Shown here piece by piece: positions 1,581 through 45,680 of a stretch of 64,000 nucleotides of DNA; within the stretch, counting starts at the first letter, position 1, and each line of letters begins with the position of its first letter. Both the position numbers and the translations under genes were made by a program. The notes below the pieces were generated by a model. The model was not told the DNA's origin. It was given only the letters and a program-made list of their open reading frames with translations, and made no database searches. This DNA is from Escherichia coli. GTDB taxonomy: Bacteria > Pseudomonadota > Gammaproteobacteria > Enterobacterales > Enterobacteriaceae. The stretch lies in NCBI RefSeq assembly GCF_022846255.1, contig NZ_AP025682.1; one strand, given 5' to 3'.

Positions 1581-3969
<2,389 letters not shown>

Positions 3970-4022
3970 TCTTTACGCCATTAACTTCTTAAATTCATAC
4001 GATGCAAAAGGCATCGCTACAA

Positions 4023-5090
4023 TTACGCCCGGGCAGCCCGGCTCACTTCATTTGCCACTCGCTCGGTGGCATCCGGAATGGATGCAGCGCGGGCGCGTTC
4101 TGCCATGGTTAATAAGGTTTCTCGCGACCACCCGGCCAGGGTGTTGGCGACAGCATCCACGCTAAGCTGTGACTGCTCGATAATTTTGGCAGCGCCCGCT
4201 TTTTCCAGCGGTAGCGCATTCCAGTATTGCTGACGGTCTTTATGTTGAAACGGCACAAACAACGCCGGTAGTCCTGCCGCGGCGATTTCACTCACCGTTA
4301 ACGCACCGGAGCGGCAAACGACGACATCCGCCCACGCATACGCCGCCGCCATATCATCAATAAATTCCGTCACTTTATGCTGCGGTTGCCCCGCTTCGGC
4401 ATATGCCTGTTCAACGGTTTGTTGCGAACCTTTGCCGCTCTGATGCCAGATAGTGACTGAATCACCCAGTTTCGCAGCAACCTGCGGCATTGTCTGGTTA
4501 AGAATGCGTGCGCCCTGGGAACCACCCACTACCAACACACGAACCGGACCTTCACGTCCAGCCAAACGTTGCTGCGGCAACGGCAGCGCCAGCACATCGG
4601 TACGCACCGGGTTACCCACCACTTCCGCATTAGGAAAAGCACCTGGAAACGCCTGCATCACTTTGGTAGCAATCTTCGCCAGCCATTTATTGGTTAAGCC
4701 CGCAATACCGTTTTGTTCATGAAGTACAACCGGAATGCCTAACGACCACGCGGCCAGACCACCTGGACCTGATACATAGCCGCCCATACCGAGCACCACG
4801 TCAGGTTTGTACGCTTTCATAATCGCCCGCGCCTGACGCCAGGCGTTGAAGATACGCAGCGGCGCAGCTATCAGTGCTTTTATACCTTTACCACGCAGAC
4901 CAGAGATACGAATGAAATCAATTTCGATGCCATGTTTTGGCACTAAGTCCGCTTCCATACGGTCGGCAGTCCCCAGCCAGCGAACTTGCCAACCCTGAGC
5001 CATTAGATGGTGCGCAACCGCCAGCCCCGGGAATACATGTCCACCGGTTCCGCCTGCCATCACCATTAATCGCTTCCCTTGACCACTCAT
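4023..5090 (-). CDS. murG: Lipid II N-acetylglucosaminyltransferase MurG
   Basis: Track ORF, 355 aa, [29 protein letters not shown]... Confidence 0.96.
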
Positions 5091-20366: not shown

Positions 20367-21023
20367 ACTTAACTCCACTGTCACACTTAACTCCCTTTCC
20401 CTTATTGGAATGCAGAGAAATAATCCTCGAGAATATGATTTATCATGCATATAAAATAAGAAAAAGCAAAATGAGTAAAATTAGGAAAACATAAAGATAC
20501 AGGTTCTGATAAAAACAGAATCCACTGCCGAGCAAAGAGTTATTTACTACAGCATAATAATCCATAATGTTTTTGTTGCGAAAACAATCTAATCATAACT
20601 ACCACGAATACTCAATCATCCACAAAATGGATTAAATGTGCTTTTTAATAATTAATTTATATGTTTAATGCATTAATTCTTAACATTAATTGATCAATAA
20701 TATTCAGCAAATGAATATCAAAAAATTCGCAAAACATATAATTCAATACAAATCATCAAGATAGGTTTTGCAACGCGTGCATTTTATCCCCCTTTCCCTC
20801 GTTGATTAGATGCAAAAAATTATTCTGAAATATGTCAACCGATGAAAAGCATCGGCGGTTAAGCAGAAATTAATATCGCTTGTTTTAACCACCGCAGCAC
20901 AATTAGCTAATTTTACGGATGCCGAACTCACAATGGCGTGACGTTTTTATTGCTTCAGGGTTGACATCCGTTTTTGTATCCAGTAACTCTAAAAGCATAT
21001 CGCATTCATCTGGAGCTGATTTA

Positions 21024-21110
21024 ATGACTCACATCGTTCGCTTTATCGGTCTACTACTACTAAACGCATCTTCTTTGCGCGGTAGACGAGTGAGCGGCAT
21101 CCAGCATTAA
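21024..21110 (+). CDS. leuL: leu operon leader peptide (28 aa, four consecutive Leu codons)
   Basis: [28 protein letters not shown] is embedded at the end of track ORF 20919..21110; sits immediately upstream of the attenuator hairpin and leuA. Confidence 0.9.
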
Positions 21111-21130
21111 GCCAGCACGCAGTCAAACAA

Positions 21131-21159
21131 AAACCCGCGCCATTGCGCGGGTTTTTTTA
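21131..21159 (+). terminator. leu attenuator, rho-independent terminator
   Basis: AAACCCGCGCcattgCGCGGGTTT followed by a T-run, between leuL stop and leuA start. Confidence 0.85.
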
Positions 21160-23866: not shown

Positions 23867-25883
<2,017 letters not shown>

Positions 25884-25912
25884 TTTGTACACCGTCCGGC
25901 ACTCAATCGCCA

Positions 25913-26143
25913 AAAAGAAAAAAGCCAGCAGATAATCACTGCTGGCGTGGCGATTAACACCAATACTCAGTCACACATGATGTCCGCAAATCAGTAGTCA
26001 GAATGACTCCCCTCCCACTGCATCAGTTCTTCAAGCATGGTTAATCGTTGTGGGACGCTTAACCAACGCAACCAGCACAACTTCGCTATCGCGGTAAAAT
26101 AGTGCTGATAAAACTGACGCATGGGGCACCTCCTTGCTTCATC
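25913..26143 (-). ncRNA. sgrS: SgrS small RNA (glucose-phosphate stress); contains the sgrT ORF and a 3' hairpin plus U-tract terminator
   Basis: Minus strand begins GATGAAGCAAGG...; 3' region carries the GUGUGACUGAGUAUUGGUGU pairing segment and ends in GCCAGCAG...CUGCUGGC hairpin plus U-run; divergent from sgrR. Confidence 0.85.
25991..26122 (-). CDS. sgrT: SgrT small protein (43 aa) encoded within SgrS
   Basis: MRQFYQHYFTAIAKLCWLRWLSVPQRLTMLEELMQWEGSHSDY is the C-terminal part of track ORF 25991..26242; located inside the sgrS 5' region. Confidence 0.8.
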   Translation of the reverse strand: MRQFYQHYFTAIAKLCWLRWLSVPQRLTMLEELMQWEGSHSDY

Positions 26144-26210
26144 GTTAGGAATTATTGACTTAATATAGGGAAAATAAAATTGCTGTCTTTTGCGCAGGAG
26201 TTCCCCTTTT

Positions 26211-27866
26211 ATGCCATCTGCTCGTCTGCAACAACAGTTCATCCGCCTGTGGCAATGCTGCGAGGGTAAATCTCAGGAGACCACGCTCAACGAACTGGCA
26301 GCGTTACTGAGTTGCTCGCGTCGTCATATGCGCACCCTGCTCAACACCATGCAGGATCGCGGCTGGCTGACGTGGGAAGCGGAAGTCGGGCGCGGTAAAC
26401 GTTCACGCCTGACATTCCTCTATACCGGGCTGGCGCTTCAGCAACAGCGGGCGGAAGACCTGCTGGAGCAGGATCGTATCGACCAACTAGTGCAGTTGGT
26501 TGGCGACAAAGCGACTGTGCGGCAAATGCTGGTTTCTCATCTGGGCCGCAGCTTCCGCCAGGGGCGGCACATCCTGCGCGTGCTCTACTATCGTCCGTTG
26601 CGTAATCTGCTACCTGGCAGCGCATTGCGCCGTTCTGAAACCCATATCGCCCGGCAAATCTTCAGTTCGCTAACGCGCATAAATGAGGAAAATGGGGAAC
26701 TGGAAGCAGACATCGCACACCACTGGCAGCAAATATCACCGCTTCACTGGCGTTTCTTTTTGCGTCCAGGAGTCCATTTTCACCATGGTCGTGAACTGGA
26801 AATGGACGATGTGATCGCCTCTTTAAAACGAATCAATACGCTTCCGCTCTATTCGCATATTGCTAACATTGTGTCGCCGACGCCCTGGACGCTGGATATC
26901 CATCTCACGCAACCGGACCGCTGGTTGCCGTTACTGCTGGGGCAAGTTCCGGCAATGATCCTGCCGCGCGAATGGGAAACCCTCAGTAACTTTGCCAGCC
27001 ATCCCATCGGCACCGGTCCGTATGCGGTGATCCGCAACAGCACCAATCAACTGAAAATTCAGGCATTCGATGACTTCTTCGGTTACCGGGCATTAATCGA
27101 CGAAGTTAACGTCTGGGTTCTGCCGGAAATTGCCGACGAGCCAGCCGGAGGGCTGATGCTAAAAGGTCCACAGGGCGAGGAAAAAGAGATTGAAAGCCGC
27201 CTGGAGGAAGGTTGCTACTATTTACTGTTCGACAGCCGCACCCATCGAGGGGCGAATCAGCAAGTCAGAGACTGGGTAAGCTATGTGCTTTCTCCGACGA
27301 ATCTGGTCTATTTCGCTGAGGAACAGTACCAGCAACTGTGGTTCCCGGCTTATGGACTGCTCCCCCGTTGGCACCATGCCCGCACCATAAAGAGCGAAAA
27401 ACCGGCTGGTCTGGAAAGCCTCACCCTGACCTTTTATCAGGATCACAGCGAGCATCGGGTGATTGCCGGGATCATGCAGCAGATTCTGGCAAGTCACCAG
27501 GTCACGCTGGAAATCAAAGAGATCAGCTACGATCAGTGGCATGAAGGAGAGATCGAGAGCGATATCTGGCTTAACAGCGCCAACTTTACGCTGCCGCTGG
27601 ATTTTTCGCTGTTCGCGCACTTGTGCGAGGTGCCGCTGCTCCAACACTGTATTCCGATCGACTGGCAAGCCGACGCCGCCCGCTGGCGCAATGGCGAAAT
27701 GAACCTGGCGAACTGGTGCCAGCAACTGGTCGCCAGCAAAGCAATGGTGCCACTTATCCACCACTGGCTGATCATTCAGGGGCAACGTAGTATGCGCGGC
27801 CTGCGCATGAACACCCTCGGCTGGTTCGATTTTAAATCAGCGTGGTTTGCACCACCGGATCCATGA
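26211..27866 (+). CDS. sgrR: Transcriptional regulator SgrR
   Basis: Track ORF 26190..27866 trimmed to [22 protein letters not shown]... (551 aa). Confidence 0.93.
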
Positions 27867-27894: not shown

Positions 27895-28005
27895 TAACGC
27901 CGTTCTCAACGGGGTGCCACGCAGCCGCGTGCGCTGAGAAAATACCCGTCGAACCTGATCCGGATAACGCCGGCGAAGGGATTTGAGGCTCCTTCTCAAG
28001 TCCTT
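27895..28005 (+). promoter_or_regulatory. TPP (thi-box) riboswitch in the thiBPQ leader (corresponds to SroA)
   Basis: CUGAGA ... ACCUGAUCCGGAUAACGCCGGCGAAGGGA thi-box elements read directly, immediately upstream of thiB. Confidence 0.85.
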
Positions 28006-45589: not shown

Positions 45590-45680
45590 AGGCCGGAGAA
45601 GGCGTTCACGCCGCATCCGGCAATTTTGCGCCGATTGCCTGATGCGACGCGGGCCGCGTCTTATCAGGCCTACACGTTGA
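45590..45680. repeat. REP palindromes between convergent rluA and djlA
   Basis: GGCGTTCACGCCGCATCCGGCA and GCCTGATGCGACGCGGGCCGCGTCTTATCAGGCCTAC motifs. Confidence 0.75.

Follow-up and report, generated by a model that had tools for sequence, protein, structure and literature searches.

An Escherichia coli sgrS/sgrT locus of the CFT073/ST131 type and its relation to the setA-linked allele of K-12

In the window, a stretch of 64,000 nucleotides of Escherichia coli DNA, the minus strand between sgrR and leuD encodes SgrS, the sugar-stress RNA with which E. coli shuts down glucose uptake under sugar-phosphate stress and which also encodes the 43-residue SgrT. The features of the locus, with positions counted from the first letter of the window, are:

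25278-25883, plus strand: leuD, convergent with sgrS and the boundary of the locus (Pfam Aconitase_C)
25912-25946, minus strand: Rho-independent terminator from the terminator scan, with the hairpin GCCAGCAG-UGAUUAU-CUGCUGGC at 25946-25924, followed by U6-C-U5
25917-26143, minus strand: SgrS small RNA, 227 nt (Rfam RF00534), with its 5′ end at the G at 26143 and its 3′ end within the T-run 25923-25912
25948-25962, minus strand: small 5-bp hairpin UGGUG-UUAAU-CGCCA just before the terminator, from the predicted fold
25957-25982, minus strand: target-pairing region CAUCAUGUGUGACUGAGUAUUGGUGU, SgrS nt 162-187, 26 nt identical to K-12
25991-26122, minus strand: sgrT, 43 codons plus TGA (Pfam SgrT PF15894, 53 bits against a cut-off of 27, residues 3-37)
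26129-26135, minus strand: Shine-Dalgarno sequence AAGGAGG of sgrT, 6 nt before the ATG, predicted not to be sequestered
26144-26210, no strand assigned: sgrR-sgrS intergenic region of 67 nt with the SgrR-dependent sgrS promoter, 66 of 67 nt identical to K-12
26211-27866, plus strand: sgrR, the divergent transcription activator of sgrS, 551 aa (Pfam SgrR_N 148 bits, SBP_bac_5 75.9 bits)

A scan of the window with Rfam 15 at the gathering thresholds returned the SgrS family (RF00534) at 26143-25917 on the minus strand, scoring 226.6 bits where the gathering score is 37 (E = 1.3e-63); the match covered model positions 1-232 of 232 without truncation, and no pair in the alignment was flagged as non-canonical. 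An earlier note on this DNA, made from the sequence alone, had described the SgrS architecture on this strand (5′ end, sgrT ORF, pairing segment and terminator) and had named an Rfam score below the threshold as the result that would speak against it. The score came out on the opposite side, and all four elements were found where the note had placed them. There is a single copy of the 5′ end GATGAAGCAAGG in the 64 kb (26143-26132, minus strand), with 0 occurrences expected by chance, and the pairing segment GTGTGACTGAGTATTGGTGT likewise occurs once in the window (25976-25957, minus strand), again with 0 expected. The 43-codon sgrT ORF runs on the minus strand from the ATG at 26122-26120 to the TGA that ends at 25991 and gives the product MRQFYQHYFTAIAKLCWLRWLSVPQRLTMLEELMQWEGSHSDY, and the terminator hairpin at 25946-25924 (minus strand) has an 8-bp stem with 6 G-C pairs and a 7-nt loop and is followed by TTTTTTCTTTTT. 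The interval proposed for the RNA, 25913-26143, agreed with the Rfam match except that its 3′ limit lies 4 nt deeper in the T-run, which is immaterial. The label of a known element was correct, and so was the divergence from sgrR, which lies 67 nt upstream of sgrS on the opposite strand (Pfam SgrR_N). The minimum-energy fold of the RNA reached -84.1 kcal/mol, against -65.0 ± 4.8 kcal/mol for dinucleotide shuffles (z = -3.96), and the two 3′ hairpins form in it. We conclude that the locus is almost certainly sgrS of an E. coli strain with the CFT073/ST131-type allele, a 227-nt Hfq-dependent dual-function small RNA. It is intact, in the expected position and ordinary, and its allele has been known since 2009.

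The gene order in the window is thiB-sgrR-sgrS-leuD, with a TPP riboswitch between sgrR and thiB (Rfam, Pfam); synteny of thiB (tbpA), sgrR, sgrS and leuD was the criterion used by Horler & Vanderpool for functional SgrS homologues (PMC2760817). RefSeq annotates sgrT, sgrR and leuD at matching positions in E. coli sequence that is 99.7% identical to the window. The sgrR DNA is 96.3% identical to that of K-12. The ORF list begins sgrR 7 codons early, at a TTG at 26190 (558 aa), an extension that would overlap the sgrS promoter region; annotation and conservation both place the start at the ATG at 26211. Three further Rfam matches on the plus strand, all expected in this chromosome region, were the leucine operon leader (21010-21158, 147.4 bits), the TPP riboswitch ahead of thiB (27900-27999, 66.1 bits) and the REP-derived element naRNA4/CssrE (45591-45670, 77.3 bits).

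The sgrR-sgrS intergenic region is conserved and has been used for assigning the sgrS start site (PMC2760817). Stress induction of sgrS would depend on SgrR in this strain too, judging from the 66 of 67 intergenic positions shared with K-12. The hexamer AATAAT at 26156-26151 on the minus strand resembles a -10 element and, located at -13 to -8, is a candidate element of the sgrS promoter. No good -35 element was found in the intergenic region, which would suit an activator-dependent promoter. A minus-strand match of the promoter scan, AAGACA-16-TATATT, was rejected as the sgrS promoter; it stops 18 nt short of the conserved 5′ end, a poor position for the known start.

The target-pairing region CAUCAUGUGUGACUGAGUAUUGGUGU is predicted to be mostly single-stranded in the minimum-energy fold, and its last 5-6 nt form the 5′ arm of the small hairpin. 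The 26-nt block is invariant between the two E. coli alleles (see below) despite their diverged flanks, and 22 of its nucleotides are the same in all of 44 loci from Citrobacter, Salmonella, Klebsiella, Raoultella, Enterobacter, Siccibacter and other Escherichia. These loci come from 47 genome matches to a pattern of 19 specified bases; the other three, in Veillonella, Phormidium and a Woesearchaeota genome, are roughly as many as chance would give and were left out. As ptsG lies outside the window, pairing was computed with the K-12 leader, which is a reasonable substitute because the ptsG leader is nearly invariant in E. coli (at least 99% identity in 5379 of 5424 genomes). SgrS nt 156-197 and positions -45 to +15 of ptsG gave a duplex of -29.9 kcal/mol, equalled by 3 of 1000 shuffles. 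Its core, CUGAGUAU/AUACUCAG together with GGUGUU/AGCACC, lies over the ptsG Shine-Dalgarno sequence. Pairing of the full-length SgrS with 150 nt of ptsG in RNAduplex produced a meaningless whole-length duplex (-74 against a shuffle mean of -73) and was discarded in favour of the single-stranded segment. In E. coli EBJ001 (NZ_CP086336.1), a urinary isolate with a K-12-type sgrS, a 15-nt deletion (TGCCTGCATCATGTG) at about positions 3222-3240 of the locus compared removes the 5′ part of the pairing region and leaves sgrT and the terminator; this sgrS may be a natural pairing-impaired allele.

The small hairpin that follows has a calculated energy of -4.7 kcal/mol, against -4.6 kcal/mol for its K-12 counterpart GGUG-UAAAAU-CACC; the sequence differs and the structure is kept. 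It corresponds to a hairpin that is described, in work cited in PMC4509938, as part of the 3′ Hfq-binding module. The terminator hairpin is calculated at -14.1 kcal/mol (K-12, -12.6 kcal/mol), and its closing pair in the window is G-C. A tail of six U residues followed by C is also what Citrobacter, Salmonella and other Escherichia commonly have, and the terminator U-tail is required for Hfq binding (PMC4509938). The sequence elements of the Hfq-binding module, i.e. the terminator, the U-tail and the small hairpin, are thus all present, and Hfq would be expected to bind them. The same hairpin was considered as a bidirectional canonical intrinsic terminator that would also serve leuD, and this was rejected, as the plus strand has no T-run after the hairpin.

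In the 5′ part of the RNA, the sgrT ribosome-binding site differs from that of K-12. The K-12 Shine-Dalgarno sequence is AAGGGGG and lies in a GGGG/CCCC stem, whereas the window has AAGGAGG without the inhibitory stem-loop; the local 5′ hairpin over the ribosome-binding site was calculated at -0.4 kcal/mol in the window and at -6.0 kcal/mol in K-12 (GGGG-GUG-CCCC). In K-12 the stem-loop sequesters the ribosome-binding site and inhibits sgrT translation, and Horler & Vanderpool found it in just 3 of 15 strains (PMC2760817). Of 5399 complete E. coli genomes, 3348 have the exact 60-nt leader of the window (26101-26160) and 1421 have that of K-12. The remaining genomes, about 630, include O157:H7, whose leader differs from that of the window at one position, consistent with its published start-codon mutation. 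The leader of the window is the common form and probably the better-translated one. Since the consensus AAGGAGG is not hidden in a K-12-type stem-loop, SgrT output from this allele is probably higher than in K-12.

The only substitution relative to the nearest complete genome, T at 26088 (minus strand), changes Thr12 of SgrT to Ile and an Rfam C:G pair to U:G. Public databases list the exact Thr12Ile protein, from 52 contigs, under the name 'glucose uptake inhibitor SgrT [Escherichia coli]', and the change is therefore a minor circulating SgrT variant, not an error. The SgrT homologues of K-12, Salmonella, Klebsiella and Erwinia are known to inhibit PtsG transport (PMC4021124).

The RNA could in principle work as a riboregulator with sgrT silent or barely translated, which would make the locus single-function in practice. 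O157:H7, a member of the same allele family, carries a mutated sgrT start codon (PMC2760817), and K-12, with its ribosome-binding site sequestered, makes very little SgrT (PMC2760817, PMC4021124). In the window, however, the ATG at 26122 is intact and followed by 43 open codons, the consensus AAGGAGG stands 6 nt before it, the sequestering hairpin of K-12 is abolished (-0.4 against -6.0 kcal/mol) and the conserved SgrT core matches Pfam, and we regard a silent sgrT as improbable. The ORF track shows the sgrT frame solely as an over-extended ORF of 83 aa (25991-26242, minus strand), as the earlier note had remarked, and the idea that this longer ORF, returned by a mechanical listing with an ATG start, is the real gene and the 43-aa sgrT a truncation has next to no chance of being right: its ATG (26242) lies 99 nt upstream of the SgrS 5′ end and within the sgrR coding region of the other strand, the extension crosses the sgrS promoter, the Pfam SgrT match is restricted to the 43-aa part, and RefSeq annotates the 132-nt sgrT in thousands of genomes.

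We compared the 327 nt that separate the start codon of sgrR from the stop codon of leuD with 5426 complete E. coli genomes, 5399 of which had a match. The best match (99.7%) was E. coli Combat2C1, and ST131, O2:H6 and similar strains followed at 98.5-99.4%. The matches fell into two identity classes, one of 2158 genomes with at least 95% identity and one of 3241 genomes with 90-95%, K-12 being in the latter. This split has been described: SgrS of K-12 and of CFT073/O157:H7 are 88% identical, and the sgrT start codon of O157:H7 is mutated (Horler & Vanderpool 2009, PMC2760817). Between the window and K-12 we found about 91% identity over 293 aligned bases, in line with the published figure. 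The window shares its allele family, the length of the RNA, the type of 3′ end and the absence of setA with the CFT073/O157:H7-type SgrS, and ST131, O2:H6 and O157-like genomes are 98.5-99.7% identical to it over the 327 nt; it differs from O157:H7 in the intact ATG of sgrT.

K-12 SgrS is likewise 227 nt long and has the same 5′ end, and its 26-nt pairing block and terminator stem are identical to those of the window. SgrS nt 1-130 are 97.7% identical between the two, whereas nt 131-227 are only 72% identical. Outside the pairing core, this diverged region spans the C-terminus of SgrT (...EELMQWEGSHSDY in the window, ...EGLMQWDDRNSES in K-12), the spacer that precedes the seed, the small hairpin, and the loop and tail of the terminator (U6-C-U5 in the window, U8 in K-12). 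Downstream of sgrS, K-12 has setA, whereas in the window leuD follows directly. The SgrS RNAs of Salmonella and Citrobacter have a pairing core identical to that of the window and a terminator tail of the same 'ctgctggcttttttc' form; the Salmonella ribosome-binding site is unsequestered (PMC2760817), as is predicted for the window, and several Citrobacter species have a spacer and terminator very close to that of the window, 'taatcgcc(g/a)cgccagcag'. They differ in keeping setA after sgrS, in an SgrT of 40 aa and in a 5′ region of only about 72-78% identity. Between the two E. coli alleles, the stems carry base changes on a single side or none; the family structure is the one curated in Rfam.

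A tblastn search of the window found no SetA-coding DNA, and the K-12-type sgrS-setA operon is absent from it, with no effect on the SgrS family membership of the locus. The leuD stop codon lies about 30 nt from the sgrS T-run with no setA between them, as seen on comparison of 25884-25946 with positions 3198-4620 of the K-12 locus. In K-12, setA stands between sgrS and leuD and is co-transcribed through read-through of the sgrS terminator (PMC4509938). We found setA in 3241 of 5426 E. coli genomes and the K-12-type sgrS 3′ end also in 3241 (the counts were compared, not the lists of genomes), and this equality suggests that the K-12-type 3′ end and setA travel together. The divergence is confined to a tract that starts near nt 135 of sgrS, takes in setA and reaches some 70 nt into the 3′ end of leuD (80% identity there), and the flanks are 94-98% identical. 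Across the junction, identity has been retained in the 26-nt seed alone. A single recombination event appears to have produced the two E. coli sgrS alleles, with its left junction at about nt 135 (sgrT codon 37), and the diverged tract looks imported into the A/B1 lineage, for which gain of setA has been reported (PMC6896753).

Loci of other species bear on the direction of this exchange. All non-Escherichia genera sampled carry setA after sgrS wherever downstream DNA was retrieved. The absence of setA together with the window-type 3′ end was found in E. albertii, E. whittamii, Escherichia sp. E1V33 and the divergent strain SCPM-O-B-8794. Escherichia sp. MOD1-EC7003, compared with K-12, is 100% identical in the 3′ part of sgrS and 98.9% identical in setA, with just 91.9% identity in sgrR; a K-12-like tract next to a diverged sgrR points to interspecies transfer. 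Apart from this strain, no close match to the K-12-type setA tract, and hence no donor, was found among the 44 enterobacterial loci. K-12 setA is 73-80% identical to setA of other genera, and sgrR, where most of the gene aligns, 72-81%; as these values are alike, the source of the tract would be about as distant from the other genera as Escherichia itself. On these comparisons, the simplest reading would be that setA was lost early in Escherichia, that the window type is ancestral for E. coli, and that the K-12 type arose through homologous replacement from a diverged donor and later moved between Escherichia lineages. In the strain SCPM-O-B-8794 (NZ_JAATUR010000005.1), which is labelled E. 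coli, sgrR is 90.8% identical to that of K-12, compared with about 96% in typical E. coli and similar to the values of E. whittamii and cryptic-clade strains; it is probably a non-coli Escherichia lineage deposited as E. coli.

The missing setA and a 3′ third that is about 28% different from K-12 might also be taken as signs of a decaying, non-functional sgrS remnant left after setA loss, but we give this virtually no credence: the Rfam match spans the full model and has no pair flagged as non-canonical, none of the pairing core, the two 3′ hairpins and the U-run is missing, the allele has been kept in about 2158 complete E. coli genomes as well as in E. albertii, E. whittamii and other Escherichia, and the sole private change, C to U at 26088, turns an Rfam C:G pair into U:G.

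The locus is thus read as a working sgrS. The targets and mechanism of SgrS are established in K-12 and Salmonella, namely ptsG, manXYZ and yigL, and the action of SgrT on PtsG (review PMC4021124), and we infer them for the window allele by sequence identity. Accumulation of sugar phosphates would lead SgrR to activate the sgrS promoter. The small hairpin, the terminator hairpin and the 3′ U-tail would bind Hfq, and the single-stranded 3′ segment CAUCAUGUGUGACUGAGUAUUGGUGU would pair with the ribosome-binding region of the ptsG mRNA and also with manXYZ. Together with Hfq, this pairing would block translation and trigger RNase E decay, and synthesis of new glucose transporter would stop. The yigL mRNA would be stabilised by SgrS. 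The 5′ two-thirds of the RNA would be translated into the 43-aa SgrT, a direct inhibitor of the PtsG transporter already in place. Expression, Hfq binding and SgrT production of the window allele are all expected on these grounds, and nothing in the sequence counts against the SgrS/SgrT identity. Most experiments used the K-12 RNA, with which the 3′ third of the window allele shares only about 72% identity outside the pairing core, and the window allele may therefore differ from K-12 in stability, termination efficiency and secondary targets.

A stronger version of this, in which the two chimeric alleles differ in function and the setA-less form is not neutral but tunes the stress response differently, seems doubtful to us. 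If it were true, the candidate functional differences would be the C-terminal tail of SgrT, secondary target pairing next to the seed, Hfq binding and termination efficiency.

For annotation, the stretch is correctly described as sgrS (ncRNA) plus sgrT (43 aa), rather than as an 83-aa hypothetical protein. The RefSeq feature tables of three complete genomes, including K-12 and EBJ001 (NZ_CP086336.1), list the sgrT CDS and the TPP riboswitch and have no sgrS ncRNA feature. Scans that rely on CDS or ORF tracks would miss the sgrS RNA, since these tables omit it.

In the literature on the allele and on the gain of setA, we found neither the junction inside sgrS nor the link between setA and the 3′ allele. 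The mildly new point is that the sgrS 3′ allele appears coupled to setA, with a junction inside the small RNA gene, which is a modest refinement of the known picture. The allele of the window is found in about 40% of complete E. coli genomes, among them the uropathogenic ST131/CFT073 types and O157:H7. K-12, the strain of nearly all SgrS work, is atypical in this comparison, as it combines a minority 5′ stem-loop with the setA-linked 3′ end.
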